This document shows positions 8,570 to 29,245 of a DNA stretch of 64,000 nt, piece by piece (within the stretch, counting starts at the first letter, position 1; each line of letters opens with the position of its first letter). A model generated the notes under the pieces. It had not been told where the DNA came from, made no database searches, and saw nothing but the letters and a program-made list of their open reading frames with translations. This DNA comes from Clostridia bacterium. GTDB taxonomy: Bacteria > Bacillota > Clostridia > RGIG6154. The stretch lies in the NCBI GenBank assembly GCA_045593265.1, contig JAZNWH010000131.1:9422-73421 (forward strand). The letters run 5' to 3'. A program made the position numbers and the translations under genes.

Positions 8570-8627
8570 ATTGTTATCCTCCTTTTTCTTTTGTGTCTTT
8601 ATACTACCACAACTTTTTATGTTTTTC

Positions 8628-8642
8628 TGTGATATTATCACA
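8628..8642. promoter_or_regulatory. Perfect palindrome TGTGATattATCACA about 60 nt upstream of the trxA start, the same operator architecture as upstream of trxB.
   Basis: Exact 6-3-6 inverted repeat lying in the trxA promoter region. Confidence 0.45.
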
Positions 8643-8724
8643 TAAAACACATATAATCCCGTAACAAAATATGACATACTTTAAATAAAGAAAAGGGACA
8701 TTCAATTTTGGGCAAAAAATAAGA

Positions 8725-8901
8725 AATGGCTCAAACGCAGTGTTTGAGCCAAAATAAAGCAGGACTCCGAAGAATCGACAGATTTTTTGGGAAGAAGAGG
8801 AACAGTGAAGCAAGTGATTGATTTTTTGTATAGAAAAACAAAGCAAACGAAACTTATTCCGACGAGGCAGGGGCAGAGCGAAAAGAGTCATATCCACAAT
8901 A
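8725..8901. repeat. R1 repeat copy 1, about 177 bp and about 98% identical to 36635-36809. It contains a minus-strand intrinsic terminator hairpin at 8727-8751 and may be an sRNA or UTR module.
   Basis: The two copies differ by one 3-bp indel and one substitution. The hairpin tggctcaaac-gcagt-gtttgagcca is followed on the minus strand by a T-run. Confidence 0.6.
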
Positions 8902-8960
8902 ACATGAAAACTATGAGTAATAAGGTATTTGTAGGCATATTTTTCCATTTATTATTCATT

Positions 8961-9059
8961 ATAGAGGATATATCCGGACACACAACATCGCAGATAACCG
9001 AGATGTACTATGTAAAGAAGGACACCTCAAGGCTGAACGGAATCACAGATGGGTTTGAG
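8961..9059 (+). repeat. R2 repeat copy a, about 99 bp, encoding the peptide IEDISGHTTSQITEMYYVKKDTSRLNGITDGFE. It lies within a possible small ORF at 8904..9152 with an N-terminal hydrophobic segment.
   Basis: Second copy at 10673-10771. The 11 nucleotide differences are all synonymous in this frame. Confidence 0.5.
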
Positions 9060-9077
9060 TTATGGAAATATGCGGCA

Positions 9078-9125
9078 ATAAAAATACACCCTGAGAACAG
9101 AATTTTCGGGGTGTATGATTTTTGT
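9078..9125. terminator. Hairpin with flanking T-runs that serves as a terminator for the minus-strand SGNH gene and for any + strand transcript from the R1/R2 region.
   Basis: atacaccc-tgagaacagaattttc-ggggtgtat, followed by TGATTTTTG on the + strand and TTTTTATT on the minus strand. Confidence 0.45.
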
Positions 9126-9152
9126 ATGCCGTATATCTTCGAAGATGTATGA

Positions 9153-10118
9153 TTAGAGTAATTGTTCTTTAATAATCTTTACAAGATTTTTGCTTACGGT
9201 TTTATGTCCTTTTCTGTCAGGGTGGAGTGGCTCAGGGTTTATCCATCCTGTTGTATTTATGTAGAATACATTGTCGCTGTTTTTACTGTTATATGTGTCT
9301 GTAACCATTTTGATTTCTTCTGCTAAGCAGCCTGAAAAAGGTGTTAATGCTATTATTTGGGATTTTGGGTTTCTTTTTCTTACAAGACACAAAAATTCAA
9401 AATATTTTTTCTTAAATAAATCTTTATCATTTTTTCTGTCATTGGTTCCGTGGTTAATGACAATAATATCTGCATTCTGACTTTCCATTGGAAAACCATC
9501 GCTATAGTATGGGTAAGATTCTTCGGCTGGAGGAACATTTCCTGCTCCGCCTTTGGTTGTACCAAGGCATCCGTAGCCCATAACAACAGGACGGAAATTA
9601 AGGGATTTTGCTGTAAGATATGCATATCCTGCTGTTGAATCGTCCCAATAAACCATATCTCTGCTGTCCTGATAATTTGAATACTTAGTATCTATAGAAA
9701 TACCTTCTGTTATTGAATCACCTATAAATTCTATAACAGGTCTGGTGTCTTTAGGGAGTGGGCAGAATCCTTCGGCTTCTATTGAAACAAGAGAAACTTT
9801 AGCTTCTATAGGATTAAGCCATCTGTTCTGCGTTTCCATAGAGCTTTTCATCGTTACGCAAACTTTGTGTTTTCCTGATTCAGCAGAAATTCTTATAAAT
9901 TTGTCAAGAGTAACTTCAATGTTGGCTCCATTGTCTACATTTATGTAAATATGAGGGTAGGGAATTTGGTTTTCTGATATATCAAATTCGATTACAGCAC
10001 ATTCTCCTTCGTACATAAATTCAAAATAGCTTCCGTTGGCTGTAGATACAGACGCAGCCGTGGTAATGTTCCAGCGGCCTGTATACCTTATTTGGTTGTC
10101 GTCGTGTTTTATAATCAT
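9153..10118 (-). CDS. SGNH/GDSL hydrolase with an N-terminal beta-sandwich domain, similar to carbohydrate esterase family 2 (candidate acetyl-xylan or acetyl-mannan esterase).
   Basis: GDSITEG block I and GTND block III. N-terminal jelly-roll-like domain of about 120 aa. No signal peptide. Confidence 0.55.
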   Translation of the reverse strand: MIIKHDDNQIRYTGRWNITTAASVSTANGSYFEFMYEGECAVIEFDISENQIPYPHIYINVDNGANIEVTLDKFIRISAESGKHKVCVTMKSSMETQNRWLNPIEAKVSLVSIEAEGFCPLPKDTRPVIEFIGDSITEGISIDTKYSNYQDSRDMVYWDDSTAGYAYLTAKSLNFRPVVMGYGCLGTTKGGAGNVPPAEESYPYYSDGFPMESQNADIIVINHGTNDRKNDKDLFKKKYFEFLCLVRKRNPKSQIIALTPFSGCLAEEIKMVTDTYNSKNSDNVFYINTTGWINPEPLHPDRKGHKTVSKNLVKIIKEQLL

Positions 10119-10133
10119 AGTTAGACTCCTTAT

Positions 10134-10742
10134 TTATAAATTTTTTCGTATTTGAGATGGTGAAAGACCACATTCATTTTTAAAAACATTTGAAAAATAT
10201 GCAATATCCTCGAAGCCACATTCAAGTGCTATATCGGAGATTGAAAGATTTGTAGTTTCTAGAAGCTTTCGGGCTTCTTCACAACGGAGTTGACGAAGGT
10301 AATCAAAAACAGTGATTTTGGTATGTTCTTTAAAAAGCTTAGAAAAGTAAAATTTACTGAAGCCGGCAGCGGCCGCGACCTCGTCAAGAGTAAGCTTTTC
10401 CTTATAATGTTCTCTTATATATTTTATTCCTTTTTTAATATTTTCGTTAACATATGTATCTTCTTGTACCGGTCTTTGATAGTTTTTGTATAAATAAGCT
10501 ATCAGTGTAAGTGTTGCGGCACGAAGAGAAACCTCGCATTTTTCAAGATATTCCTTTTCAACAGATTCAAAATAATCAAATAAATGTTCATCTTCAATAC
10601 ATTCGCGAAATTCAAATTTCCCGGGTGCGAGTCCCGATTCGCTTAAAAATTCTTTGCTGACTTTAAAACAATATAGAGGATATATCCGGACATACCACAT
10701 CGCAGATAACTGAGATGTACTATGTAAAGAAAGATACATCAA
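10134..10742 (-). pseudogene. N-terminally truncated AraC-family regulator remnant. Its apparent 5' end runs into R2 repeat copy b.
   Basis: The C-terminal AraC HTH is complete, but only about 90 aa of the sensor domain remain, against about 180 aa in neighbouring AraC paralogs. The first 23 codons are antisense to the R2 repeat. Confidence 0.45.
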
Positions 10743-10771
10743 GATTAAATGGAATCACAGATGGATTCGAG
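10673..10771 (+). repeat. R2 repeat copy b, encoding the same peptide as copy a with only synonymous differences. It lacks the upstream hydrophobic segment and a start codon.
   Basis: Codon-level comparison with 8961-9059 shows 11 synonymous and 0 nonsynonymous differences. A stop follows immediately after FEI. Confidence 0.5.
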
Positions 10772-10905
10772 ATATAATTAACGAACACAGGAACTTTACA
10801 AAAAATTCTAAAAAGTGAGCCAACCTCAAAAAGTTAGACAAAAATCTAAAGATTGAGAGGTCGGCTTATTATATGTTTTAATTCGGAGTTTTTTTATATT
10901 ATCAT

Positions 10906-11730
10906 TTATTTGTGAAGATATCTTTTTCGATATTTTGAAGGAGTTAAACCGATGGACTTTTTAAATATTTTTATATAGTAGTCTGCATTATTGAAGCCTG
11001 AAAGCAGTGCAACGTCCGAAATAGATCTGCTTGAATCTTCAAGATGGGTAATAGAAGCTTCAATGCGTTTTCTGTTGATATATTCTGTAGGTGTAATTTT
11101 CATAAATTCTTTAAAAAGTGTTCTGTAACGGGATTCACTTAATCCTTCTATGTCTGCAAGGTCTTTTATCTTAATATCGAAAGGATATTTTTCATTGATA
11201 TAATTAATTGATTTTGAAAACAGATGCTTGATGTTTGGGGCATGTATATATCTTGAGGTGTCGGCAAGTATTATTGTAAATATAGCACCGGTAACATCGT
11301 TTAAATATTCACCGCCTAAACTAAAAGCTTCAAAAAGTTTTTTAAAATCGTCTACGATTTTGTGATGAATTCCCGGTGTAAAAGGAACATTTACAGGAAT
11401 TTTAAAATGTTCAAGGATGGATTTTGCCTGGTATCCCATAAAATGAAGAGTAAGATAGGTTATGGGAGTTTCCTTATCGGTTATCTGAATATGATATGTA
11501 TTGGGAGGGACGATAAACATATCACCCTCATTCAATCTGTAAGTTTTATCCGTTTTAATAGAGTAAGAGTTTTTTTGTATGTAAAAAAGATGATAGTCAG
11601 TTCTGTTCAGACGGCTTATCCCTTCATATTTTTCGGTGGTTCCTGCACAGGTTATAAGTAATGGTAAATCTGTAGTACAGGTACCCATATAGCTTGCAGG
11701 GTCGGGTATATAATAGTAATGACTTTTCAT
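10906..11730 (-). CDS. AraC-family transcriptional regulator (cupin-like sensor domain plus dual HTH).
   Basis: C-terminal AraC signature (DIKIKDLADIEGLSESRYRTLFKEFMKITPTEYINRKRIEASITHL). 274 aa. Confidence 0.75.
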   Translation of the reverse strand: MKSHYYYIPDPASYMGTCTTDLPLLITCAGTTEKYEGISRLNRTDYHLFYIQKNSYSIKTDKTYRLNEGDMFIVPPNTYHIQITDKETPITYLTLHFMGYQAKSILEHFKIPVNVPFTPGIHHKIVDDFKKLFEAFSLGGEYLNDVTGAIFTIILADTSRYIHAPNIKHLFSKSINYINEKYPFDIKIKDLADIEGLSESRYRTLFKEFMKITPTEYINRKRIEASITHLEDSSRSISDVALLSGFNNADYYIKIFKKSIGLTPSKYRKRYLHK

Positions 11731-11887
11731 ATTCTACCTCGCTTTATAAGTATACGGAATTCAACTTAAACGAAATCTACGATTTAATACTACACTATAA
11801 ACCGAATAAATGCAAGAGTAATTCGTTATTTGGCATTATTTACATAATAAATAGTAATCGAAAAGTGCGGTTTTGTTGAATTGTACA

Positions 11888-11916
11888 TTGAAGAGCAGTT
11901 GCAAAAGTGATAATAT
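11888..11916 (+). promoter_or_regulatory. Candidate sigma-A promoter for the 11972 gene (-35 TTGAAG, 17-nt spacer, -10 TAATAT).
   Basis: Hexamer match and spacing, found by sequence inspection only. Confidence 0.35.
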
Positions 11917-11971
11917 GAAAATGCGAAAGCTATAAAGCAAATTATAAATATAGACAAAAAGGAGAGATTGG

Positions 11972-14900
11972 ATGAAGAATAGAGCAAAAAGAGTTATGAG
12001 CCTTTTGATTTTGCTTACGATGATTGTTTCCTGTTTTACGGCAACAACTACTTTTGCGGCTCAAACTTATGGTGTTGACAATTTAAACAGTAAGAAAGGC
12101 GATTTGTATATTGGCTTTCTTGGTGGCTCAATAACTCAAGGATCAGGTGCGACATTGCTTGAAAACAGATATTCATCATTAATAACTAAAGAATTTTTTG
12201 GCAGTAAATTTGCTCCCGGAAAAGTTACGGAAATTAATGCTGCAGTCGGCGGAACAGGCACCGAGTATGGTCATATGAGAATGTATAAAGATTTAAGACT
12301 CGGAACTGAGGAATCTCCCGATGTTGTTTTTGTTGAATTTGCGGTAAACGACAGTTCTGTAAGTACACCATCACGACTTAAGAACATGGAATCAATTGTA
12401 AGACAACTTATTTCGCAACCTAAAATTCCTGCAATTATCTTTGTTTACACATTTTCGAGCGACTCACGATATATTGATGGTGCTGATGCCAAATCTGTAG
12501 AAGGTGCTATAGAGGATTTTCACAAGATAGCTGAAAACTACGGTATTTATGAAATTAACTTAACTGAATATATCGGTAAGGGAATAGAAGAAGGAAAATG
12601 GCTTTGGAATTCTTCGGGTCAGGAAAATAATTTATCTATAGATACGGCACATCCCAACGATTTCGGTTACAGAGTTTATGCAGATTACATTAAAGAATGT
12701 CTTGAAAAGGATTACGATAAAGCTTTTAGTAAGATAGACCCAATGACCAAGCCTTACGGTAATGACCTTTTCGGTGTTATAGAAGAAATATATTTTGGTG
12801 ATGACAGAGTTGTCAAAAGTAAAGAATGGAAACATAAGAAAAGAGTGGAAGGCACTGAAAACCATTTTTACAAAGGATTCTATACAAATCAGGATTCACT
12901 GGATGCAACCTTTGAGTTTGAATTTGAAGGCCGCGGTGTAGGTATCAATGTAACAAGAGATTATAATAATGCATATGTTAACTGGTCAGTAACCAAAAAA
13001 TCAACCGGAGAAGTTGTTGCTTCGTCAACAATAAGATATCCGTCTACCATTCAGCGCAATGATAACGGAATAGGTTTCTTACTTGCAACAGGACTACCAA
13101 AGGATACTTACATATTTAAGTGTACTCTTTCAGAGAGTGAACATGCAATAAACAGAGGCGGAAACGGAAAATATATGGCTATTGCCAATATTGTTGTAGA
13201 AAAGGATTTACATTCAAATCTTCCGGGACCTGACGGAAATGTAATTGCACCTGATGTAGATTCTTCCGGAGAAACAGAGAATATTCCACAGGAAGAAGTG
13301 AAGAATGAAAGTCTTGCAATATCAGGTGATAAAACAATTCTTTATGTAGCAAAGGATGGTAAGGATACCAACAATGGTTCGATAGATTCACCTTTTGCTA
13401 CTCTTGAAAAGGCGAGAGATACAATACGCTCACTTAAAAAGAGTGGTAATCTCGGTGAAGGTGGAGCTGTTGTTTATATAAGAGGCGGAGAATATTTAGT
13501 ACAGAAAGAATTGTTGCTTACTGAAGAGGATTCGGGAGCTGAAAATGCGCCCATTGTTTACAGAAATTATCCTGATGAGAAAGTTGAGTTTATGGGTGCG
13601 GTCGATATGAATACCGAACTGTTTAAACGTGTAACGGATGAAAGCGTATTAAATAAGATTGTCGATACTAAGGCAAGAGATAAGGTAGTGGCAGTTGATT
13701 TATTTGCATTGGGATACACGGAACTTCCTGAGCAGTATTGGCCTGGTGCATATTCCTACATTCAGAATATGCCGTCAATTACAGGTAGAGAAAAGCCGAC
13801 AGCAATAGCATCAGAACTTATTGTAAACGGTCAGGCACAAACAATTGCAAGGTATCCGAATAATGATTATATGTATATTGAATCTGTTATCGAACCGGGT
13901 GCAATGCCGAGAAACTGGAGTAACGATGTAAAAGGAAGCGACGATTATGTTAAGCCCGAGGACAGAGTACCTACACCTTTTACTTTTACGGTAGCTGATG
14001 AAAGAATTAAATACTGGACAGATGCAAAGGATGCACTTCTTTACGGTTATTTCTATTATTCATGGGCAGATCAGACGGTGCCTTTAGCATCAGTTGATGT
14101 TTCAAAGCATGCAATTACTTCAAAATATCCCAGCGTATACACTGTACTTGCAGATCAGTATTTCTACATATACAATTTGTTAGAGGAAATTGATATTCCG
14201 GGTGAATATTTTGTAGACAGAGAGAACGGTATTTTATACCTTTATCCTCCTGAAAGTGGCATCAGTTCAGCAATATATACTACTCTTGAGGATTATATGT
14301 TTAACCTTCAGGGAGCTGAATATATCAGCATAAAGGGTATTGATATGAGCTATATGAGAAGCGGTGCAATTTTCTCAATGGGTGTTAAAGGTGTTGAAAT
14401 CGCGGATTGTGAAATCAGCTATACAGGTTCTAAAGCGGTAACAGTTTCCGGTTATGACAATAAAGTATATGATTGCTATATTCACGATGTTGAAGGCGGT
14501 GTTGTGCTTGATGGCGGCGACAGAAAAAATCTGATTCCCGGTAATAATTATGTTGAAAACTGCGAATTTGAAAATTGTTCAAGAATTTCAAGTACATATA
14601 TGCCTGCCGTAACATTATCAAACATAGGTAACAGGGTAGTTAATAATAAAATCCATGGTTCACCTCATTTGCTTATTCAGTTCAGCGGTAATGACCATAT
14701 TATAGGATATAATGAAATTTACGATGCCTGTCAGCATACCGATGATGCAGGTGCTATGTATGCGGGTAGAGCAGTTTCACAGCAGGGAAACAGAATAATT
14801 AACAATTATTTCCACGATATTGAATCTGAAGAACTCGGTAATAATGGTGTATCGGGATTATATTTAGATGACTACTGGAGTTCCGCAGATATTTCGGGGA

Positions 14901-15859
14901 ATGTATTTGAAAACATTTCAGGTTACGGTGTTGCTTCGAGCGGTAACTTTACTAAGATAAACAACAATATTTTTGTTAATGTTCGTAGTGGTGCAGTTCG
15001 TGCAAAGGGCTCGGATACTTATAATCAATCTGTATCAGAAGTATTGAATGAATTTAATGTTTTGTGGAATGATGAACTTGTAAGATTTGATTGCTACAGT
15101 GATAAATGGATTAAAAAGTATCCTCAGATATTGGAGCTTAAGGACGAAAACGGAAGATTCCGACTTGGTTATAAGATGGAAATTATGAACAATATCCTCT
15201 ATAACTCATCAGACAATGTTGTCGAAAATGATGTAAAACGTGACGGAACGGTTGAAAATAATTTATTAATTACATCTGACCCGGGATTTTACGATGTGGC
15301 AAATAGAAATTATCTTCTAAAGCCGGATTCGGAAATTTATACAAAGATTCCGGATTTCCATCCTATCGCATTTACAAGAATGGGACAGTATTCATCCAGA
15401 GCTATGTCAAGAATCAAAAATGCTTATGTTTTATCAGCAGAAAGTCCATATGTGTTCAATAATGGTGAAAAAATTAAAGGCGATAAGAATGGTATAACTG
15501 TTATTGACGGTAAAGCCTATGTTCCACTTCGTAAAGGCGTTGAAGCTGTTGGCGGAAGCATTCAGTTTGATGAAGCGACAAGTGAGATAAGTATTACTAC
15601 AGATACAAAGCTCGTAAGCTTTACAGATGGTGAAAAGTCAAAGGTAAGCTCAAACGGAACGGAATATACACTTGTAAATCCTATTGTAAATAAGGAATAC
15701 ACAAACTATATAAGTATTACAGACCTTGCAGCTTTATTTGAAAAGCAGTTAACTGAATACGAGGATATATTTGTAATAAGTGATGTTGAAAATCTATTTA
15801 CCAAAACGGTTGACGACGGACTTTTAAGATATATTCAATCACAGCTTACTATATATTAA
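11972..15859 (+). CDS. Secreted multidomain protein of 1295 aa: signal peptide, SGNH/GDSL esterase domain, right-handed parallel beta-helix (pectin-lyase-fold) domain, and a C-terminal Cu-amine-oxidase-N-like domain.
   Basis: Signal peptide MKNRAKRVMSLLILLTMIVSCFTATTTFAAQ. GGSITQG and EFAVNDS esterase blocks. The beta-helix core (NNKIHGSPHLLIQFSGNDHIIGYNEIYDACQHTDDAGAMYAGR) is paralogous to 16041, 53382 and 59540. The C-terminal about 150 aa is shared with the 53382 protein (GLLRYIxxQLTIY). Confidence 0.7.
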   Translation: MKNRAKRVMSLLILLTMIVSCFTATTTFAAQTYGVDNLNSKKGDLYIGFLGGSITQGSGATLLENRYSSLITKEFFGSKFAPGKVTEINAAVGGTGTEYGHMRMYKDLRLGTEESPDVVFVEFAVNDSSVSTPSRLKNMESIVRQLISQPKIPAIIFVYTFSSDSRYIDGADAKSVEGAIEDFHKIAENYGIYEINLTEYIGKGIEEGKWLWNSSGQENNLSIDTAHPNDFGYRVYADYIKECLEKDYDKAFSKIDPMTKPYGNDLFGVIEEIYFGDDRVVKSKEWKHKKRVEGTENHFYKGFYTNQDSLDATFEFEFEGRGVGINVTRDYNNAYVNWSVTKKSTGEVVASSTIRYPSTIQRNDNGIGFLLATGLPKDTYIFKCTLSESEHAINRGGNGKYMAIANIVVEKDLHSNLPGPDGNVIAPDVDSSGETENIPQEEVKNESLAISGDKTILYVAKDGKDTNNGSIDSPFATLEKARDTIRSLKKSGNLGEGGAVVYIRGGEYLVQKELLLTEEDSGAENAPIVYRNYPDEKVEFMGAVDMNTELFKRVTDESVLNKIVDTKARDKVVAVDLFALGYTELPEQYWPGAYSYIQNMPSITGREKPTAIASELIVNGQAQTIARYPNNDYMYIESVIEPGAMPRNWSNDVKGSDDYVKPEDRVPTPFTFTVADERIKYWTDAKDALLYGYFYYSWADQTVPLASVDVSKHAITSKYPSVYTVLADQYFYIYNLLEEIDIPGEYFVDRENGILYLYPPESGISSAIYTTLEDYMFNLQGAEYISIKGIDMSYMRSGAIFSMGVKGVEIADCEISYTGSKAVTVSGYDNKVYDCYIHDVEGGVVLDGGDRKNLIPGNNYVENCEFENCSRISSTYMPAVTLSNIGNRVVNNKIHGSPHLLIQFSGNDHIIGYNEIYDACQHTDDAGAMYAGRAVSQQGNRIINNYFHDIESEELGNNGVSGLYLDDYWSSADISGNVFENISGYGVASSGNFTKINNNIFVNVRSGAVRAKGSDTYNQSVSEVLNEFNVLWNDELVRFDCYSDKWIKKYPQILELKDENGRFRLGYKMEIMNNILYNSSDNVVENDVKRDGTVENNLLITSDPGFYDVANRNYLLKPDSEIYTKIPDFHPIAFTRMGQYSSRAMSRIKNAYVLSAESPYVFNNGEKIKGDKNGITVIDGKAYVPLRKGVEAVGGSIQFDEATSEISITTDTKLVSFTDGEKSKVSSNGTEYTLVNPIVNKEYTNYISITDLAALFEKQLTEYEDIFVISDVENLFTKTVDDGLLRYIQSQLTIY

Positions 15860-15906
15860 TTGCTTGTATCCGTGTATATTTAATATACACAGTTTACTCA
15901 TAAAAC

Positions 15907-15986
15907 TGCCTTGTTTGTTTTTTAAAAAAATAATATAACATCTCTTTCCAAATTATATGTTTTTTGCAAACAAGGCACCCCCTTTT
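15907..15986 (+). terminator. Putative terminator: an 11-bp stem (tgccttgtttg/caaacaaggca) with a large loop, followed by CCCCCTTTTT.
   Basis: Inverted repeat plus T-run downstream of the 11972 stop. The unusually long loop makes this uncertain. Confidence 0.3.
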
Positions 15987-16040
15987 TAAAAAAACTTTTA
16001 TTTTAAAAGTAATTATATATAAAAGAAAGGATTTGAAATT

Positions 16041-19000
16041 ATGAAAAACATTAAAAAGATAATTGGCATAATTCTTACAATTTGTATGGTTTTGCAAATA
16101 CTTCCCGTTTTTGCAAACGAAACACAAACAAGCGAAGCGGAATTTAATTATATTATCAATGATAATTTTTCCGCTGAAAGCTTTGATGGATGGAGTCTTG
16201 TGAAGGATACAGGGTATAGCTCCCTTGCAGACGATTTGGTTTCTTTGATACCTGTTGAAGGTGAAGAAGGAAACTATGCGCTTAACTATACTTCTGTTGA
16301 CAGCAAAACAGCAAGATATACTCATATTACAAGAACATTTGGTGAATCGGTTGCAATTTCAGGGGATAATGATATTGTAATCGAAACAAGAATGAAAACC
16401 ACAGGTACTAACCGTGCTTTCTTAAAGTATAATCTTGTAACATACCCTAAGTTTGAAAACGAATGGAATTATAACTGGGGAACATTAGTTGGTACTGACG
16501 GAAGTGATGTATTTGTACTAAATGGCTGGAAGGCAAATGAAACAACGCTTTTGTACGGATATCCTACAGAAGTTAAAACCAGTGTAAGTGATTTTGCTGA
16601 TAAATGGCATAATTACAAAATTGTGATTAAAGGCGGCGAAGTTGATACATCAACACATACCGCAGTTGGCAACACAATGGACATTATCGTAACCGATGAT
16701 GACGGAACAATTGTTAAAGAAAGTTACGGTCTTAGTATGGATTTTCCAAATGCTTCAAGCTGGGAAAATGTAAATGATAAAGGAAATGCAAATATAACAG
16801 ATTATAATTGGGTTGAAGATGCATTAAATACTCTGGACTTCAGATTAAGAGATGCAGAAACACTTACTGTTGACTATGTAAGAGTTTACCAGCAGTTTGA
16901 CGCAGATATGTCAGTTGATGAATTTATTCTTAATAATGAAGATGTAGTTATTAATATTGATATTGTAAAAGGTGATGCGTTATTTGAAAATTCTTTCGCT
17001 TTATATGATGCCTACGGTGATATTGTTGATACATTAAACTCTATTGATGAAACAAATAAAGTTGTAACACTTTCACCGATTGACAGTCTTACAGTAGGTG
17101 AAAAATATACAGTTAAGCTTAATAAATCGGTAGTTCCCGGTAACTATAATTTTGTAGAAGATGAAGTAAGCTTCATTGCATCCGATGTAAAATATATACT
17201 TTATGATGAATTCGGACAGGATGATTTAAATGGCTGGGAGCTTGTTAAGGATTCCGGCAAAACAACAAGCAGTACAACTGTACTTACATCACAGGAAATT
17301 CCTGAAGAAGCAGGTAACTATGCACTTGAATATATATCGGCTGCAACTCCTGAGGCAAACTGGAGATATAATCATATAACCAGAAAACTTTCATCATCTG
17401 TTCCTTTTGCAAGTGATAAAGAGCTTGTAATAGAAACAAGAATGAAATCAACAGGTACAGGACGTGTATATTTAAAGTACAATCTTGAAACATATCCATC
17501 TATTGTTAATGAATGGAACTATTGGTGGGGCGCACTTGTAGGTTCGGATACGGACAGATTCTATATTCCGAACGGATGGGAGCCAAAAAACGATGTTTAT
17601 TTGTCAAATCCTGTAAACACTGCATGGGATGAAGATGAAGTGCTGACAGGAACAGGTAATAAATGGTATACATATAAATTTGTAATTCATGGCGGAGAAA
17701 TTAATAACGAAACACATACTGCAACAGGAAACACAATGGATGTTACCATTACAGATAACGATGGTGCGGTTGTCACAGCTTTGAAAAATATGAGCATGGA
17801 TTTCCCGGACAATTCAACGTGGTCTCATTCAGGTTCTGTAAATGCCGAAAATGTAAACTGGGTTGAAGATGCATTAAATTCACTTGATTTCAGACTCAGA
17901 GCCCAAGAAACACTTACTGTTGACTATATAAAGGTTTATGAGCAGATTTCTGCAGATATGAGCGTTGATGCGTTTATTACTCCGAATGAAGAAATAAAAG
18001 TTACTGTTGATATAGAAAATGGTAATTCAGTTTTAAAAGATGCTTTCATATTATATGATGAGAATGATAATGTAATTGAAACATCAAATACAATCGACAG
18101 TACAAATAAGATTGTAACAATTGTGCCTGATGATAACCTTACAATGGGTAAAGAATACACAGTTAAGCTTGACACAACAAAAGTTCCTTCAAACTATGTT
18201 TTTGCAACAACTGAAAAAACTTTTAAAGTATCTGACATAAAGTACATCATGTATGATGAATTTGCAAACAACGATTTTGACGGATGGGAAGCAAAGGTGT
18301 TTAGTTCAAAATCATCTTCAAACACGCTTTCAACCGAGCCATATGAAGAAAATTCTGACAACTATGTACTTAAATACTCATCAGCAGATGCAACAAATTC
18401 CTATTACGGATATTTATCAAAATCAATTAATCCTGTTACATTCCCTACAGAAAAAGACCTTGTAATTGAAACTAAAGTTAAGGATACAAAGGGTTCGGCA
18501 GGTAAGGGTAGATTCTTCATTAAATATAATCTTGACGGCACAGCATATTCTGCAAATGAATGGCAGCACAGCTGGGGTGAATTTATCTGTGTAGATGAAG
18601 GTCTTGTATATGTTAATAATGGCTGGAAAGTACTTGCTTCAGGTTTAAACGGCACTAATTTAAAGTCTACCGGTTTGTCGGTAGCAGGTGATTGGCATAC
18701 ATATAAAATTGTGATTCATGGTGGAGAAACCAAAGACGAGGCAAAGGCAGACTACATTATATACAATTCAAACGGTGTTGAAGTAGCAAGACATGAAGGT
18801 ATAACACTTGATTTTCCGGACAACTCAGATTGGCCTAATGTAGGTACAGACACAGGTTCAACAGGTGCAAATTGGGTTGAAGGTGTTCTTAACTCTGTTG
18901 ATTTCAGATTAAGAAATGCAAATGAACTTTATATTGACTATGTAAAGGTTTATGAAAAGAAAGATGCTTCAGTTTTAGTAGATTGTAAAGATATTTTAGG

Positions 19001-22000
19001 TAATGCTGAAATTAATGCGTATATCAAAACCGGTACAGGAGCAATTGCTAATCCTGAAAAATATGTTGCTCTTTATAATGGAACAACAAAAGTTGATGCA
19101 AATATAACCTGTGAAGAAGGAACAAACAAGATTACGATTGATCCAACCGAAAAGCTTGAAATTGGTAAATATACCGTTAAATTTGATGTACAGGGCATTT
19201 TAAACGCAGGATATACAATTGATGGTCCTTCTGAATTTGATGTTAATGTTATATCTTCAACAAACGTAAATGAAACTTTTGAAGACATAACAACCGCCGA
19301 CCTTTCTGATAACGGTTGGTATTTCAGAAACGATGGACTTACAAATGTTACAAGAAATGCTGAAATTGTAACAGAAGATGGTAATAAATTCCTTAGAATC
19401 AGCGTAGACGGTGATTTGGAATTACTTGAAGGTAAGCTTGTTGCTTATTCCAAAGACCTTACAAATGCAAAATTTGTGAGAGATATGGAAAATTCAACTG
19501 TTATGGAGCTTAAGTTAAGAACAAATCTTAATACTGTAAGAAAGTATTTCAAATACAACTATCCGACAACAGGAAACATAAGCACCAATGCATATAATGA
19601 GCATGGCTGGAATACAAGACTCGGAGCGGTTATGGATGCAGGCAACATTGCCATTACATACGGAGACTACAGCTATAATGAAAGTGGCAGAATGCAGGGT
19701 AAAACTGAAAATATTGCCTCATATGAAACAAATAAATGGTATACAGTTAAAACAGTTTTTGACAATGCACAAGGTAAGGCAACAAGCTACATCTACGATG
19801 AAGAAGGGGTTCTTGTAGGCAGTGCGGAAGATAAAGCACTTTCAGCATGGTGGTTTAATTACTACGATTATGACAAGACAACACCTTTGGTTATGCATAC
19901 AATAGAAGACCTTACATTCCAGTTCAGACCGGAATCACTAAATGTTACGGTAGTAAATGAACAGTTTGATGTTGACGATATTAAGCTTTACAATATGAAA
20001 GTTTGTGATGAAAGTGTAAATGCGGTATTTAAGTCAAATGATGAAGTTGTTGATGTAATTGGCCGTGAAGTAACATCAATCGTTCCTGAATTTACCATTC
20101 AGACAGAAAATGACCAGACAAAAGATTATTATATAATAGCTGCTGTATACGAAAAGGATAAGCTTTTAACAAGTCAGTTTGTACCTGTTACAATTAACGG
20201 CAACGATACAATTACATTAGATGCAATTACTGTTGACCCACAGAATACAGATATTGAAGTAAGAGCATATATATGGGACAAAAATTTTGCTCCTGTATTA
20301 TCGACACCTACAATTATTAAACCTTTAGTTTGTGAGGTTTACCTTGCAACTGACGGAAATGATTTAAACACGGGGGAAGCAACTTCCCCCGTTGCTACTC
20401 TCAACAGAGCAATTGAAATTGTAAACGATGCTCCTGATGAAGGGTATATTACATCTAAAATTATAGTTAAAGACGGTAATTATGAGCTTACGGGAGAAAC
20501 AATTGAAATCGGCTCAAATGTTAAAACAGACAGTTTAGTTATTCAGGCAGAGAATGAAGCAAAATTTGTTAACGGTGTTGTTTTTAATATAAGTGATGCA
20601 ATCGGGGCTCCTGAGACAATTAAAGCAAGACTTGTTAATCAGGATGTTAAAGATAATCTTTATATGATTGATTTGACAACAAAGGTAGACCTTGAAGATA
20701 TTCCCGGTGTAAGCCTTCCCGGACCTTATTCATATTCAGCAAATGGTCTTAATACTCCGAATGGGGAATTTGTAATTGATGAAAGCAGAATTGCTACCTG
20801 TGAAATGTTCTTTGATAATAAACCTATGACTTTAGCAAGATATCCTGATAGTGAATATGAGGTTTTAGAAGAAGGAAAGTTCAGTTATGATGCAAATTCC
20901 CGTACACGCTACTGGATGGATGATGTTATTGGAACTGATGACTATATTGCTTTGGATGACCGTGTTACCGATGGATTTACCCTTACTCTTGACAGAGCAA
21001 AAAACTGGGGAAATGCCGACCAGGCACTTATGTTTGGTTACTGGTATTATGACTGGGCAACACAGACGGTTCCTGTAGCATCAATCGACACAACAAATGG
21101 TGTTATAACTTCTAAATATCCAAGTCATTATGGTTTGTATAAAACTCAGAGATATTATGTATATAATCTTTTAGAAGAAATCACACAGCCCAACGAGTAT
21201 TTCATCGACAGAACAACAGGCATTTTGTATTTTTACAAATCACCTGATGCACAACCTGATGATGAAATTATAATGTCCCTTTACGAAAATAAAATTTTTG
21301 ATATAAGAGCATCAAATGTTACAATAGACGGTCTTACATTTACTGCATCGAGAGATGCTGCAATTTATTCAAAGGGCAATAATGTTGTAATTAAAAACTG
21401 TGAAATATCAAATACAGCAGGTGTTGCTGTAGAATTGGACGGAACGAACTCAGTTCTTGAATATTGTAATATTCACGATGTTAATGGTGGTATAAAATTA
21501 TATGGCGGAAATCTCAATACTCTTACTCCCGGAAACAATAAGGTTTTAAATAATACTATTACAAATTTCTCTCGTCTTAGCAAAACCTACACGGATGCCA
21601 TTGAGGTTACAGGTGTAGGTAATAAAGCATCCCACAACAAGATTTCAGATGGTGAACATCTGGCAATGAGATTTTCGGGTGTTGATAACGAAATAAGCTA
21701 CAACGAAATTTTCAATGTATTAAAGGAAACAGATGAGGCAGGTGCAATTTACGCAGGACGTTCATGGACTTCAAGAGACAATGTTGTTAAATATAACTAT
21801 TTCCATGATCTTATTTCAACTGAAGAAACCACAATGCCTATTTGTGGAATTATGCTCGATGACCATTTCTCAGGTGTTGAAATTTTCGGTAACATATTCT
21901 CAAATGTTGCAGGTTATGGTATAAAGGGTACAGGAAGAGATTTGGTAATATCAAATAATATTTTCGAAAAATGCACCAGTGGAGCAGTTCGTTTAACAGA

Positions 22001-22370
22001 TGCTTCAGGTAATGCAAGCTCTTATTCAACCCATATTAAAAATATTGCAAAATACTATGGAAACGATGTTTGGTTTGAACGATTTGGAACAGAGCTTTTC
22101 ACGGAAGACGGAACAAGCTATAATCCTGATCTTGTAAATTCGGCAAATGTTGTTTATACAAACAATTTTGCAACCGATGTAGCTTCGGGTGCAGATTTCG
22201 GACCTGTAACAGAAGCAAGCGGAGCTAAAGAACCAAATAAAACCTTTGCAGTTACTAATCCGTTAAACGGAAATTACGAAAATAATGGTGCTGTTATTAC
22301 TCCATATCTTGAAGGATTTATTAATATTCCTTTTGAACAGATTGGCATAAACGGAACAGCAGGCAGATAA
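16041..22370 (+). CDS. Giant secreted protein of 2109 aa: three tandem copies of a roughly 380-aa unit (LamG/ConA-like beta-sandwich plus Ig-like domain), an Ig-like spacer, and a C-terminal right-handed beta-helix domain.
   Basis: Signal peptide. Each unit carries NYAL.Y...ETRMK.TGTxRxFLKYNL...WHxYKIVIxGGE...LDFRLRxxETLTVDYxxVYxQ. The beta-helix is paralogous to 11972 and 53382 (NNKISDGEHLAMRFSGVDNEISYNEIFNVLKETDEAGAIYAGR). Confidence 0.7.
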   Translation: MKNIKKIIGIILTICMVLQILPVFANETQTSEAEFNYIINDNFSAESFDGWSLVKDTGYSSLADDLVSLIPVEGEEGNYALNYTSVDSKTARYTHITRTFGESVAISGDNDIVIETRMKTTGTNRAFLKYNLVTYPKFENEWNYNWGTLVGTDGSDVFVLNGWKANETTLLYGYPTEVKTSVSDFADKWHNYKIVIKGGEVDTSTHTAVGNTMDIIVTDDDGTIVKESYGLSMDFPNASSWENVNDKGNANITDYNWVEDALNTLDFRLRDAETLTVDYVRVYQQFDADMSVDEFILNNEDVVINIDIVKGDALFENSFALYDAYGDIVDTLNSIDETNKVVTLSPIDSLTVGEKYTVKLNKSVVPGNYNFVEDEVSFIASDVKYILYDEFGQDDLNGWELVKDSGKTTSSTTVLTSQEIPEEAGNYALEYISAATPEANWRYNHITRKLSSSVPFASDKELVIETRMKSTGTGRVYLKYNLETYPSIVNEWNYWWGALVGSDTDRFYIPNGWEPKNDVYLSNPVNTAWDEDEVLTGTGNKWYTYKFVIHGGEINNETHTATGNTMDVTITDNDGAVVTALKNMSMDFPDNSTWSHSGSVNAENVNWVEDALNSLDFRLRAQETLTVDYIKVYEQISADMSVDAFITPNEEIKVTVDIENGNSVLKDAFILYDENDNVIETSNTIDSTNKIVTIVPDDNLTMGKEYTVKLDTTKVPSNYVFATTEKTFKVSDIKYIMYDEFANNDFDGWEAKVFSSKSSSNTLSTEPYEENSDNYVLKYSSADATNSYYGYLSKSINPVTFPTEKDLVIETKVKDTKGSAGKGRFFIKYNLDGTAYSANEWQHSWGEFICVDEGLVYVNNGWKVLASGLNGTNLKSTGLSVAGDWHTYKIVIHGGETKDEAKADYIIYNSNGVEVARHEGITLDFPDNSDWPNVGTDTGSTGANWVEGVLNSVDFRLRNANELYIDYVKVYEKKDASVLVDCKDILGNAEINAYIKTGTGAIANPEKYVALYNGTTKVDANITCEEGTNKITIDPTEKLEIGKYTVKFDVQGILNAGYTIDGPSEFDVNVISSTNVNETFEDITTADLSDNGWYFRNDGLTNVTRNAEIVTEDGNKFLRISVDGDLELLEGKLVAYSKDLTNAKFVRDMENSTVMELKLRTNLNTVRKYFKYNYPTTGNISTNAYNEHGWNTRLGAVMDAGNIAITYGDYSYNESGRMQGKTENIASYETNKWYTVKTVFDNAQGKATSYIYDEEGVLVGSAEDKALSAWWFNYYDYDKTTPLVMHTIEDLTFQFRPESLNVTVVNEQFDVDDIKLYNMKVCDESVNAVFKSNDEVVDVIGREVTSIVPEFTIQTENDQTKDYYIIAAVYEKDKLLTSQFVPVTINGNDTITLDAITVDPQNTDIEVRAYIWDKNFAPVLSTPTIIKPLVCEVYLATDGNDLNTGEATSPVATLNRAIEIVNDAPDEGYITSKIIVKDGNYELTGETIEIGSNVKTDSLVIQAENEAKFVNGVVFNISDAIGAPETIKARLVNQDVKDNLYMIDLTTKVDLEDIPGVSLPGPYSYSANGLNTPNGEFVIDESRIATCEMFFDNKPMTLARYPDSEYEVLEEGKFSYDANSRTRYWMDDVIGTDDYIALDDRVTDGFTLTLDRAKNWGNADQALMFGYWYYDWATQTVPVASIDTTNGVITSKYPSHYGLYKTQRYYVYNLLEEITQPNEYFIDRTTGILYFYKSPDAQPDDEIIMSLYENKIFDIRASNVTIDGLTFTASRDAAIYSKGNNVVIKNCEISNTAGVAVELDGTNSVLEYCNIHDVNGGIKLYGGNLNTLTPGNNKVLNNTITNFSRLSKTYTDAIEVTGVGNKASHNKISDGEHLAMRFSGVDNEISYNEIFNVLKETDEAGAIYAGRSWTSRDNVVKYNYFHDLISTEETTMPICGIMLDDHFSGVEIFGNIFSNVAGYGIKGTGRDLVISNNIFEKCTSGAVRLTDASGNASSYSTHIKNIAKYYGNDVWFERFGTELFTEDGTSYNPDLVNSANVVYTNNFATDVASGADFGPVTEASGAKEPNKTFAVTNPLNGNYENNGAVITPYLEGFINIPFEQIGINGTAGR

Positions 22371-22407
22371 TACAACATTTATATACTAAACTTCAAGGAG
22401 GGTTAAT

Positions 22408-25400
22408 ATGGATTTAAAGAAATTGACAGCAGTGCTTTGTACAATAACCTTAATATTTTCGTTGATTTCAATCCCTGCTTTTGTTGGTGAAGCTGCAGAG
22501 GCTAAATATATGATTATCAACGATAATTTCGGTGAAAATGATTTGTGCGGTTGGGAAAGAAACGCTCTTTCAACCTGCAGAAATTTTGCAACAATTTCAA
22601 CGGAAGAAATAGGCGGCGGAAATTATGCTTTGACATACGAGAGTGTTCAGTCATCAGCACTTCCGACGAAATCTGACTGGTATGGAGAATATTTACAAAA
22701 AGAATTATCAGATGGTGGTCTTGAATTTACCGAAGGTATTAACACAGTTATTAAAACGAGAATTAAAACAAAGGGAACAGGCAGAGCGTTTTTGAAAATT
22801 AATGCACCTTTAATGAATAGCACGGATCCCTGGAATTTCAATTGGGGCTCCTTGTTCTCAAATGAGGAAGGCAGTTTTTATGCAATAAACGGGTGGCCGG
22901 GTAACACATATCCTACTACGACTGCAGGGATAAGCGGACTTTCTGACAAATGGTGTGTAGTAATGGTTACAATACACGGAAATACCAAAACTGCGACTTT
23001 TGAAATCACTCCCGAAGGTGGAGAAACAACTACTTATTCAAATCTTAATATTGATTACCCTGATGTTGCAAATATGGAAGAAGATTTTCTTAAAAAGCTT
23101 GTTTTCAGATTAAGAGCTGCAGAAAAGCTTTATGTTGACTATATTCAGGTATGGCAGGAGGGAATAAAAGTAACAGAAGCTACTGCTGTTGCAGGACTTG
23201 ATAATGTTGATGTAAGTCTTACGAGCAATGCAAAGCTTAAGGATTTGGTTAAGGATTATATTGATTTGTACAATTCCGACGGTTCAACCAAAATTGAAAC
23301 TGTTAAAAGCTTTGATGCTGATACGAATGTTCTAAAGCTTGTTTGTGAATCTGGGTTAGTAACAGGTGAAACATATAAGGTAAAGATTGATACAGATGCA
23401 TTATTTACAGATTTACTTTATAAATGGGAAGCAGACAGTGAATTAACTGTTCAGGCACCTGAAGCTGCAGTGTTTAATCTTGGAATAGAAGGTGAACTTG
23501 TACCTAATACAAATCTTGAAGCAGTTTACGATTTAGTTCCAAACGGAGCTTTAGAAGATATATCTGAATTTATCTGGTACACAGTTAATGAAAATGGTGA
23601 AAAGACGGAAATCAGCGGTCAGACAGGAAAGTATTTTCCTGTAACGACGGATTATGTAGATTCTACCATTACATATTCAATGGTGCCAAAATGCATAGCA
23701 GATGGCGAAACAAAAACAGGCGTTCTTATGGATTGTCAAAAAAATGTTAAGCCTTTATCAGCTCCTGTTATAACAAATCCCAAATTTGCACCCGAAAATC
23801 CTATTGTGGGATATTCACTTTCAGCTTCTTACGATTATTTTGATGCTGATGGAGATGGTGAAGATGGTAGTCTCATAACCTGGTATAAATCAGATGCATT
23901 TGACGGAAGTTTTGAGGAATTTGCTACAGGAAAGACAATTGAGGTTACAGAAAAAGGAATGTATTATCAATACACAGTTATTCCAAAAAACGGCGCTTTA
24001 TTCCGTGAGGAAGGCGAAATGGTAACAAGCCCTGTTTCTGCTCGTTCAAACGATATTATTGAGGCGACAAATTTATTTGTTAACGGTGATGCAGAGGACG
24101 GAATAATTGCACCTTGGGATTTAACCAAAAAAACTGATGATTATAACGGTCTTTCTCTTGTGGAAGACAGCAATGGAATATACGACGGGAATTATGCATT
24201 CCGTATGCATCCGAGAGTAGTGAATGGTAACACTTTTTGGCAGGAAGTAACACTTGGTGCAGGAAAAACTTACATAGTTTCTGCCATGATAAAGTCAACC
24301 TCTGTTGATACCTGGAACAAACTTGAGGGATATGTAATGAGCAGTAATAGTACTAATTACACAAAACCTTACCGTATGGCTGAAAGAACAGATGTGTCCG
24401 ATGAATGGACAAGAGTATCTCTTACTCTTAATTCATCTGTTGAAGAAAAGTATAAGATTGGTTGGCTTTCATTTGAAGATGCTTATGGTGCTGATGCGTA
24501 TATAGATGATATGTATGTCGGAGAGCTTATGATTTCCGATATTTTAACAAATAAAATAAAGCAGGTAACTATTCCAAAGCAGGGTAAAGATCCAATCAAG
24601 GTTTCTGTTCTTACTACAGAAAATGGGAAAATTTTAAACCAATTTGGTGAAACCGATGGTCTTATCGACCAAAAAGCAACAGTGTCAGTACCTGCTGATA
24701 TTAAAGGTGTAACAGTTAAGGATAATGTACTTTATGTGGATTCAAATGCTGTTACAGGCAAAGTAAATGTAATGGTAAAATGTGTACCTGACTATAATCT
24801 TCCGGGTGAAGAAGGTAACATTATTGCAGTTACACCTGCACAGAGCGAATTTGTAAAGACTATTGAAATTGAACTTGTTGCTCACGATGATAAAACACCA
24901 TATGCACAGAATGTTGACGCTAACGGTACTGTTGCACTTGGAAACACTCTTACAGGTTATTATGATTTTTATCAGGTAGACAACGAAACTGATGCATCTA
25001 CTGTAAGATGGTTATATTCAGACAGTGCTGACGGTACATACTATGAAATTCCCGGAGCAACAGGAATGACTTATACTGTTACAAGCGATTATGCAGATAA
25101 GTTTATTAAATTTGCAGTAACACCAAAAACACAAACAGGTCTTATGGGAACGGAAGTAATGTCAGATGTTCTTGTTAAACCGACAGCACCTGTTGCGAAG
25201 GAAATTTCAGTAAGCGGTGATTTTAAGGTTGGAGGAACTGTTACAGGTACATATAAATTTGAAGATTATAATCGTGATAATGAAAATGAAGCCTTAACAA
25301 CATTTAAGTGGTATGTTGCCGATTCAGAATACGGTCAATATAATGAAATTCCGGGACAAACAGGAACATCTTTAATTCTGGGAGAAGAATTAATTGATAA

Positions 25401-26481
25401 ATACATAAAGTTTTCTGTAACACCTGTGGCTGATGCTGAGCCTTACAAAGGCACAGAAACATTCAGTAATTCTGTTATGGGACCTGTAGCACCTGTCGCA
25501 ACTAATGTTTCAATTACAGCAAATGGTGCCAGATTATCAGGTAATTATAAGTATTATCATAAATATAATGCAAGAGAAAAAGAGTCTCTTTATAAGTGGA
25601 CAGTTGATGGAACAGTGGTTTCTACAACGACAAATTATACTGTGAATTTTACGGGAACAAAGGTTGTAACATTTACAGTAACGCCTGTTGGCGATACAAA
25701 TCCATCGACAGGTAATCCTGTAAGTGTTTCTGTGGTTATAACAGGAACAAGTGATAGTGTAGGTGGCGGCAGTTCCACAGGCGGCGGAAGCTATGTCGGC
25801 GGCGGTGGTGCCTCTGGCGGAGGAACATCTTCCGGTTCATCACCATCAGGCGGAGAAGTTGTTTCAGGTATTGTAAGCATCAATAAAATGGAATATGAGC
25901 AGGAACTGCCCAAAGATGAAAACAAAGAAAACCAAAGCCAAACGAGTGATATTAACGGACATTGGGGAGAAGAATACATAAAAACAATGGAATCTCGCGG
26001 AGTAATGTCCAAAGATGAAAGCGGTAAATACAATCCTGATGAGCTTGTTACAAGAGAATCTATGCTCACATATCTTTTCAAGACCTTAAAGCTTGAATCA
26101 ACTGATTATTCGGGAATGTTTGAAGATGTTAACGATGGTGAATTTGCTGGTATGCTTCAAACTATGGTGGATAATGGTACTATTTCAGTTGATACAACCT
26201 TTAGACCCAATGACAGCATTTCCCGTGAAGAAATGTGTAAAATACTTTACATTTCGTTACAAAATGCAGGTAAACTCGGCAATGTTGAAGAAGGAAAAAT
26301 AAATTCACTTGCAGATTTCGGAGAAATTTCCGATTGGGCAGTAAAATATGTAAATGCAATGTATGGTACAAAAATGATGATTGGTGTATCGGAAGAACGT
26401 TTTGCACCAAAGGAAAATTTAACAAAGGCACAGGCTGCTACATTGCTTACAAGGATAATATCGTTAGTAGAGGGGGAGTAA
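22408..26481 (+). CDS. SLH-anchored surface protein of 1357 aa: signal peptide, one LamG-like module, an Ig-like domain, repeated roughly 90-aa beta-sandwich units, a CBM4/9-like domain, a Gly/Ser linker and three C-terminal S-layer-homology domains.
   Basis: Repeats carry W/YxSDxxDGxYxEIPGxTGxxYTVTxDYADKFIKFAVTP. CBM4/9-like segment NLFVNGDAEDG...W. Three SLH motifs (DINGHWGEEYIKTMESRGVMSKDESGKYNPDELVTRESM, and two more). Confidence 0.7.
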   Translation: MDLKKLTAVLCTITLIFSLISIPAFVGEAAEAKYMIINDNFGENDLCGWERNALSTCRNFATISTEEIGGGNYALTYESVQSSALPTKSDWYGEYLQKELSDGGLEFTEGINTVIKTRIKTKGTGRAFLKINAPLMNSTDPWNFNWGSLFSNEEGSFYAINGWPGNTYPTTTAGISGLSDKWCVVMVTIHGNTKTATFEITPEGGETTTYSNLNIDYPDVANMEEDFLKKLVFRLRAAEKLYVDYIQVWQEGIKVTEATAVAGLDNVDVSLTSNAKLKDLVKDYIDLYNSDGSTKIETVKSFDADTNVLKLVCESGLVTGETYKVKIDTDALFTDLLYKWEADSELTVQAPEAAVFNLGIEGELVPNTNLEAVYDLVPNGALEDISEFIWYTVNENGEKTEISGQTGKYFPVTTDYVDSTITYSMVPKCIADGETKTGVLMDCQKNVKPLSAPVITNPKFAPENPIVGYSLSASYDYFDADGDGEDGSLITWYKSDAFDGSFEEFATGKTIEVTEKGMYYQYTVIPKNGALFREEGEMVTSPVSARSNDIIEATNLFVNGDAEDGIIAPWDLTKKTDDYNGLSLVEDSNGIYDGNYAFRMHPRVVNGNTFWQEVTLGAGKTYIVSAMIKSTSVDTWNKLEGYVMSSNSTNYTKPYRMAERTDVSDEWTRVSLTLNSSVEEKYKIGWLSFEDAYGADAYIDDMYVGELMISDILTNKIKQVTIPKQGKDPIKVSVLTTENGKILNQFGETDGLIDQKATVSVPADIKGVTVKDNVLYVDSNAVTGKVNVMVKCVPDYNLPGEEGNIIAVTPAQSEFVKTIEIELVAHDDKTPYAQNVDANGTVALGNTLTGYYDFYQVDNETDASTVRWLYSDSADGTYYEIPGATGMTYTVTSDYADKFIKFAVTPKTQTGLMGTEVMSDVLVKPTAPVAKEISVSGDFKVGGTVTGTYKFEDYNRDNENEALTTFKWYVADSEYGQYNEIPGQTGTSLILGEELIDKYIKFSVTPVADAEPYKGTETFSNSVMGPVAPVATNVSITANGARLSGNYKYYHKYNAREKESLYKWTVDGTVVSTTTNYTVNFTGTKVVTFTVTPVGDTNPSTGNPVSVSVVITGTSDSVGGGSSTGGGSYVGGGGASGGGTSSGSSPSGGEVVSGIVSINKMEYEQELPKDENKENQSQTSDINGHWGEEYIKTMESRGVMSKDESGKYNPDELVTRESMLTYLFKTLKLESTDYSGMFEDVNDGEFAGMLQTMVDNGTISVDTTFRPNDSISREEMCKILYISLQNAGKLGNVEEGKINSLADFGEISDWAVKYVNAMYGTKMMIGVSEERFAPKENLTKAQAATLLTRIISLVEGE

Positions 26482-26484
26482 CAG

Positions 26485-29178: not shown

Positions 29179-29183
29179 AAAAA

Positions 29184-29206
29184 GGCTTCGGCAAAATGCC
29201 GAAGCC
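29184..29206. terminator. GC hairpin ggcttcggc-aaaat-gccgaagcc after the 26485 gene. The A-run lies 5' and there is no T-run 3' on the + strand.
   Basis: Perfect 9-bp stem. The orientation of the T/A tracts is atypical for a + strand terminator. Confidence 0.3.
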
Positions 29207-29245
29207 TGAGTGCTGAATGAATAATCATAAAAAATGGAGTTAGAC

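Follow-up and report, generated by a model that had tools for sequence, protein, structure and literature searches.

A near-identical repeat pair in a Clostridia bacterium as probable tRNA-Trp-type attachment sites bounding a carbohydrate-utilisation island

What is the repeat of about 180 bp, here called R1, that occurs twice in the window (the whole analyzed stretch of DNA, 64 kb long) and carries a terminator-like hairpin in each copy? The original prediction took it for a possible sRNA or portable 3'-UTR module. The reading that we prefer, with a probability of roughly 0.6, is that R1 is an att site of the tRNA-Trp type and not a gene, and that its two copies would be the attL and attR of a 27.9-kb carbohydrate-utilisation island with a decayed integrase.

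Self-alignment of the window yields direct repeats at 8722-8903 and 36632-36809, in the same orientation and 27.9 kb apart. As predicted, the two copies differ in one substitution (8894 C / 36802 A) and one 3-bp indel (GAG near 8798-8800), the repeat being slightly longer than first noted. The flanks diverge abruptly at both ends of both copies.

8722..8903, minus strand: R1 copy 1, proposed attL-type site, identical with module B (see below); trx cassette on the left, linker and integrase stub on the right
36632..36809, minus strand: R1 copy 2, proposed attR-type site, likewise module B; module C on the left, the AraC 3' end 21 nt away on the right
8904..36631: proposed island cargo, 27.7 kb between the R1 copies, with an SGNH esterase, a truncated AraC, a second AraC and a 24-kb plus-strand cluster of carbohydrate-active genes

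R1 is indeed non-coding: the ORFs 8604..8948 and 36590..36805 drawn over it, both on the minus strand, are purely mechanical, have no gene support and should be dropped from the annotation. Both copies had also been described as lying immediately downstream of minus-strand genes, which is accurate for copy 2, 21 nt past the AraC stop codon, and loose for copy 1, which an integrase fragment and the plus-strand terminator of that fragment separate from the stop of the SGNH esterase, 250 nt away.

Outside the window, an exact 22-mer from R1 matched one genome in the GTDB set, the MAG Clostridia bacterium RGIG8497 (water deer cecum), where it is present twice in contig JAGAJK010000009 (loci L002 and L003). 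By this exact 22-mer the copy count is two in the 64-kb window and two in RGIG8497, a species-representative MAG. Sequences of the R1 type come from just three sources, namely the window, RGIG8497 and L023, a metagenome contig reached via the widespread CcdA protein. Their identity is near 100% inside the window and 93% for L002 against L003, and it falls to 83-86% when the window is compared with RGIG8497; the outer end (...CACAATA) is common to all copies, while the opposite ends vary. No plasmid or phage matched R1 by BLASTN, the exact 22-mer was absent from viral contigs, a metagenome scan with a 20-mer returned chance G+C-rich matches only, and exact-protein look-ups of the window AraC and isomerase found no record.

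Alignment of L002 and L003 to the window, with the window plus strand as the orientation, indicates a larger repeat built of modules A, B and C, with R1 as B in the middle. Module C corresponds to 36420-36631; module A corresponds to 8959-9065 and recurs at 10669-10777, where it is the partner of repeat D8. The order is C-B-linker-A in L003, C-B in L002 and at window copy 2, and B-linker-A at window copy 1, while A stands alone at 10669.

36420..36631: module C, with a terminator hairpin (36433-36466), the C-core (36507-36583) and a promoter-like sequence (36594-36622)
8904..8958: linker of 55 nt from R1 to the integrase stub, present in L003 too
8959..9065, plus strand: integrase stub A, approximately codons 371-404 of a ~400-aa tyrosine integrase, stop codon lost
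9084..9116, plus strand: terminator hairpin past the first stub, resembling those that follow intact int in L007 and L008
10669..10777, plus strand: second integrase stub, with the same start point and an intact stop, abutting a 5'-truncated AraC ORF

The nature of module A follows from protein comparisons. A search with the ORFs over A and B returned tyrosine integrases of ~400 aa (PF00589, often with PF14659) ending in ...GHTTSQITEMYYVKKDTSRLNGITDGFEI, and tblastn placed integrase residues 371-404 exactly at 8961-9062, at 10673-10774 and in L003, with 88-91% identity (P0008, P0014). By tblastn the window holds no other part of an integrase, including the N-terminal one; full-length relatives are encoded elsewhere, in L006 and L007. 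Codons of the copy 1 stub differ from those of the 10669 stub by 11 synonymous to 2 non-synonymous changes, both of the latter at the lost stop, and those of the 10669 stub differ from L003 by 3 synonymous to 0. Since the codon differences are overwhelmingly synonymous, the stubs derive from functional integrase genes, and the fragments should be annotated as pseudogene remnants. Where an att site would have a functional integrase beside it, the last 34 codons only are found here, 55 nt from R1.

All three integrase stubs start at the same point, TATAGAGGATATATCC, though the 10669 copy has a different upstream context, the 5'-truncated AraC. The outer end of R1 is an 11/13 inverted repeat of this TATAGAGGATATATCC start, a motif that also occurs by chance elsewhere.

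The stub start TATAGAGGATATATCC contains the palindrome GGATATATCC, and the cut falls at the same nucleotide at 8959, at 10669 and in L003. The AraC-family ORF at 10134-10781 lacks the N-terminal domain and is cut exactly where the stub 10669-10777 begins. The terminal motif TATWGWGKATAT, considered as a recombinase core site, was suggestive and was set aside, as it occurs by chance at 15192 too. The linker, considered as a remnant 5' part of an int gene after internal deletion, shows no similarity to int 5' regions. An SSV-like split integrase, with attP inside int, was rejected as well, no N-terminal int part being present anywhere in the window.

The link between R1 and tRNA-Trp is carried by a short core. 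The plus-strand sequence GGCAGGGGCAGA in R1 reads TCTGCCCCTGCC in the tRNA sense, which is the acceptor 3' end of tRNA-Trp; it matches 12 nt of the tRNA-Trp 3' end in L009 and 11 nt of that in L023, with its orientation relative to the C-core preserved and its distance to the C-core similar. In the window this 12-mer occurs in the two R1 copies only, with 0.03 occurrences expected by chance.

8866..8877, minus strand: tRNA-Trp 3'-end core of copy 1, the match to GGCAGGGGCAGA
36774..36785, minus strand: tRNA-Trp 3'-end core of copy 2; RGIG8497-like synteny ends at 36783, and homology to the tRNA-Trp locus ends at ~36784
8878..8903: outer arm of copy 1, GCGAAAAGAGTCATATCCACAATA, in place of the tRNA body, with the sharp outer boundary CACAATA
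36786..36809: outer arm of copy 2, kept beside AraC in RGIG8497-like strains without the rest of R1

The L023 contig shows what lies beyond this core in an intact locus. Its positions 13590-13939 align with window C plus R1 at 71% identity over 367 nt and at 79% over 169 nt (E = 3e-30), and its homolog of the series terminator, C-core, hairpin and B runs directly into an intact tRNA-Trp(CCA) gene at 13928-14003 (ARAGORN; Rfam tRNA, 62.6 bits). In the alignment of the window with L023 the R1 identity ends 11-12 nt inside tRNA-Trp, and in R1 the tRNA body is replaced by GCGAAAAGAGTCATATMCACAATA, an outer arm of 24-27 nt. The same neighbourhood is seen in L007, where int, a terminator and the C-core are followed by tRNA-Trp(CCA) on the opposite strand, and in L009 (IMG/VR), where int and the C-core are followed after 140 nt by tRNA-Trp, again pointing the opposite way. 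To judge from these alignments, R1 is the last ~12 bases of tRNA-Trp plus ~150 bp of downstream DNA, including the hairpin. The replacement of the tRNA body by a short foreign arm is, on the same comparisons, the signature of recombination of an integrase element at a tRNA 3' end; a displaced tRNA 3' fragment is classic for an att site, and R1, being identical with the 3' end of a tRNA gene over its core, apparently shows such a fragment. An intact tRNA at one boundary is lacking: ARAGORN finds no tRNA in the window, L002 or L003, and an intact tRNA-Trp adjoins the homologous block in L023 only.

The C-core itself follows the motif TGATGCTnnTTGATGATGTArCAGACGGAATGGTT...CGAAATTGATrCT and was found at window 36507-36583, L007 11292-11368, L008 ~396-471, L009 1184-1220 and L023 ~13650-13730, that is, in five unrelated contexts beside tRNA-Trp and/or the 3' end of ~400-aa tyrosine integrases. 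Three TGATGMT-like repeats occur within this motif, which may represent arm-type integrase binding sites. L007 also has a direct repeat of 90 nt (11487-11576 / 11657-11747) consisting of the last 17 nt of tRNA-Trp and its terminator; the repeat adjoins a lone integrase between the host genes GH141 and efp and looks like a minimal or decayed integrative element.

The hairpin of R1 reads TGGCTCAAAC, 5 nt and GTTTGAGCCA on the minus strand, followed by a T-run, with a 10-bp stem in both copies. It had been predicted to be an intrinsic terminator, and it behaves like one in the comparison: it is called in both copies, and one stem pair shows a compensatory double change, C-G to U-A, in L003, L002 and L008, while the loops vary. 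A stable stem-loop with a U-run is thus kept in the homologs.

8727..8751, minus strand: terminator hairpin of copy 1, 10 bp, with the T-run at 8710-8726; terminator-like site by consensus scan
36638..36662, minus strand: terminator hairpin of copy 2, followed by TTTTTTGTGT; terminator-like site by consensus scan

Downstream of AraC (36831-37619) the hairpin at 36638-36662 is the only terminator-like site, so that copy 2 in effect supplies the AraC terminator; to this extent the idea of a 3'-UTR module was right, the self-contained portable unit being unsupported. In the best reading, from sequence, the hairpin was probably inherited from the region downstream of tRNA-Trp and is now predicted to end the AraC transcript incidentally. 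R1 resembles intrinsic (Rho-independent) terminators in its G+C-containing 10-bp stem, 5-nt loop and T-run, and in the preservation of the stem while the loop varies; it differs from them in that the hairpin is embedded in, and travels with, an att-derived block. Att-derived blocks can in this way donate terminators to host genes.

A near-consensus sigma-70-type promoter-like sequence, TTGACA-17-TAGAAT, lies on the plus strand at 36594-36622 (11/12 positions) and points into R1; both hexamers are kept in L003 with a different spacer, and the sequence is absent in L002 and L023. A plus-strand RNA starting from it was considered and dropped, as the promoter is kept in L003 and not in L002/L023, and no terminator defines such an RNA. 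A type I toxin-antitoxin system (small hydrophobic ORF and convergent terminator) was dropped too, the ORF being the integrase C-terminus.

Related strains place a breakpoint at the tRNA-like core. An ortholog (P0121) of the AraC that adjoins copy 2 is encoded, with 98% identity, in RGIG8497 (contig 77) and in several metagenomes of the same study; the RGIG8497-like loci L011-L018 match the window at 97.6% identity between 38000 and 36783. This match takes in AraC, the 21 nt after it and, read on the minus strand, the first 27 nt of R1 (TATTGTGKATATGACTCTTTTCRCTCT), and it stops exactly before GCCCCTGCC. Past 36783 these loci hold a different MGE-like segment with a 559-aa ORF, an HTH_3 protein and a sigma-like protein, so that the breakpoint at the core edge leads into another element and not into an empty site; a hairpin of that different element takes the place of the R1 terminator after AraC. 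Because the match of a near-identical chromosome stops there, the tRNA-like core is a recombination breakpoint of another element. Another four contigs stop at the edge of R1 or no more than 14 nt into it, and the att-site reading would show why assemblies break at this point. Between strains that share 97.6% identity at the AraC locus the R1 copies reach only 83-86%, and they thus seem to behave as accessory DNA.

The element that replaces R1 in the RGIG8497-like strains carries, at the contig end of L011 (14300-14637), tandem repeats of ~86 bp.

The layout recurs in RGIG8497 contig 9, with B-C at one end and A-linker-B-C at the other, ~55.6 kb apart, in the same relative orientation and around different cargo. 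Among the loci compared, no empty site of the form trx/R1/AraC, no circular junction and no second junction of the neighbouring element was recovered; the closest CcdA contigs are too short to reach R1, and the L002 locus was uninformative as an empty site, since its synteny with the window ends at the start of the SBP gene. As no empty site was recovered, we infer the mobility of the island rather than see it.

The arrangement is what the integration of a single circle would produce. A circular island with the order terminator, C, R1, linker, int and cargo would have recombined with an R1 copy already resident between the trx cassette and AraC, the recombination core being proposed at TCT/GCCCCTGCC. 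The product would read trx, R1, linker, integrase stub, SGNH and the 24-kb carbohydrate gene cluster up to terminator, C, R1 and AraC, with the R1 pair as attL and attR of the island. The integrase would since have decayed to 34 codons, leaving the island fixed or movable only with an integrase in trans. In such a product the hairpin derived from the tRNA-Trp downstream region would terminate AraC at copy 2, as AraC has no terminator of its own, and at copy 1 it may shield or insulate the trx promoter. Integration of a circle would account for the absence of C from copy 1 and of linker-A from copy 2, for the integrase stub being just inside one repeat and C just inside the other, for the order C-R1-linker-A in L003, as predicted for an attP-like junction, and for the like arrangement in RGIG8497 contig 9, where the cargo is different and spans ~55.6 kb. 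For the element beside AraC in RGIG8497, the far junction is predicted to be ...B-GGCAGGGGC/element.

Direct repeats of the attL/attR kind bound genomic islands, prophages and ICEs/IMEs that target tRNA genes with tyrosine integrases (general background in PMC4482086, PMC2717098). The segment described here is like them in having direct repeats with a tRNA 3' end, an integrase remnant beside one repeat and accessory metabolic cargo. A strain-specific presence with a breakpoint at the tRNA-derived core may be a further likeness, the break in the related strains leading into another element. It differs in that no repeat adjoins an intact tRNA, in that the integrase is cut to 34 codons, and in that R1 has ~180 bp, mostly of the downstream region rather than tRNA sequence. 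Integrase subfamilies prefer particular sublocations of the tRNA 3' end. CIME-type elements are att-flanked and have no integrase (ICESt1/ICESt3 literature). As in SGI1, integrative elements can use secondary attachment sites and accrete in tandem (PMC2297512). The R1 island resembles SGI1-type secondary sites and CIMEs in its apparent integration into a non-tRNA att-like copy, with remnants of earlier elements beside it, and in being an att-flanked segment without a working integrase; it differs from them in that it is known from sequence alone and in that the resident site looks like an attP-like relic and not a host gene.

Of the explanations that compete with an att site, an sRNA gene on the minus strand, or a portable 3'-UTR/terminator module, ending at the hairpin, would account for the terminator-like hairpin and T-run in both copies, for the covarying stem pair and for copy 2 being the only terminator after AraC. 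We consider it very improbable: despite the terminator there is no minus-strand promoter-like site upstream of R1, the comparison with Rfam gave no R1 match for the window and both copies at gathering and permissive E-value thresholds, the minus-strand fold is unremarkable (z = -1.7), and in RNAalifold with five homologs the covariation term is unfavourable on both strands, only the terminator stem covarying. Moreover, copy L002 follows no co-oriented gene, and the L023 homolog is simply the tRNA-Trp flank, where the terminator of tRNA-Trp itself comes first. A MITE-like non-autonomous transposon, which the original prediction would have recognized by divergent copies with TIRs or TSDs, fits a short, non-coding, near-identical dispersed repeat at which assemblies break, and is still scarcely credible here, as R1 has no TIRs (also the earlier finding) and no visible TSDs, its only strong inverted repeat being the internal hairpin and its flanks sharing no duplication. 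In addition, just two copies were seen in the 64-kb window and two in RGIG8497, the left extents vary while the right end is fixed, and R1 is associated with an integrase and a tRNA rather than with a transposase. What R1 shares with MITEs and sRNA genes is that it is short, non-coding, repeated and intergenic; it differs from them in having no TIRs or TSDs, no minus-strand promoter-like site upstream, no covariation beyond the terminator stem and no Rfam family. The near-identity of the copies had been ascribed to recent mobility or selection, and the first of these holds, the near-identity reflecting recent activity of mobile DNA.

By another explanation, the two copies are independent relics of old tRNA-Trp-type integrations, kept similar by gene conversion or homologous recombination, and the 28 kb between them are ordinary chromosome. 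Several findings speak against an island. There is no GC shift across the 28-kb segment and no empty site was seen; the window lacks both an intact tRNA-Trp and an integrase, and with them the textbook arrangement of a tRNA island; an identity block of ~180 bp is long for an att core, and gene conversion could have homogenised the copies. The two integrase stubs and the truncated AraC within the segment suggest several rearrangements, the second stub, with the same start point in a different context, is not explained by the island, and the trx side, a hot spot in its own right, has many different neighbours. Two relics nevertheless seem rather unlikely to us, because the direct orientation, with the stub inside one copy and C inside the other, is exactly that of one integrated C-R1-linker-int circle, because the layout recurs in RGIG8497 with different cargo, and because the junction in related strains falls at the core.

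With R1 taken as an att site, the candidate sRNA or MITE is reclassified as an integration scar, and the 28-kb carbohydrate cluster of this uncultured Clostridia bacterium from a herbivore gut was probably acquired horizontally through a tRNA-Trp-type integrase. A further suggestion, which is tentative, goes beyond a single insertion: the tRNA-Trp 3' fragment with its flank, hairpin and C-core may be a portable landing pad, or pseudo-attB, carried by islands and reused by different integrase elements. Its users would be the 28-kb island in the window and another element at the same core in RGIG8497-like strains. If so, tRNA-Trp-specific integrases would assemble and exchange carbohydrate-utilisation islands at non-tRNA sites and supply the neighbouring genes with terminators, and the C-core, given its five unrelated contexts, would be a functional arm site.

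Other features of the window were noted in passing. To the left of copy 1, at ~4975-8696, there is a thiol-redox cassette comprising trxB, ccdA, a tlpA-like gene, crp/fnr and a convergent trxA, with 88-93% nucleotide identity in ten unrelated contigs; the CcdA cluster P0247 occurs on 546 contigs or more, which are named after Clostridia, Bacilli and Lachnospiraceae MAGs. For the majority of the ten contigs the cassette homology ends at 8695-8696, and beyond this border there are different elements (RdRP/MobL/integrase, integrase and FtsK, an IS, Fic/AbiE). The cassette appears to be widely disseminated and an integration hot spot.

A separate repeat of ~185 nt with ~88% identity (6685-6866 and 33005-33195) immediately precedes two ORFs that are unrelated to each other, the TlpA-like gene at 6829 and a 509-aa gene at 33012. 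Ten other trx cassettes lack this repeat, and L032 has it. In the predicted structure the inner part of the stem differs between the copies and still pairs (three double changes), and a long predicted helix pairs TCTCTTATCATTCC with the Shine-Dalgarno region GGAATGGAGA. Rfam gave no match for this repeat, which looks like an undescribed cis-regulatory leader or a riboswitch candidate. Finally, tandem coding repeats of ~1050 bp (families D1, D3, D9, D10, D13 and D14) were found at 16300-19000 and 23000-23200; they are described inside the 2109-aa ORF 16041-22370 and look like domain repeats in a large protein of the carbohydrate-active or surface type.
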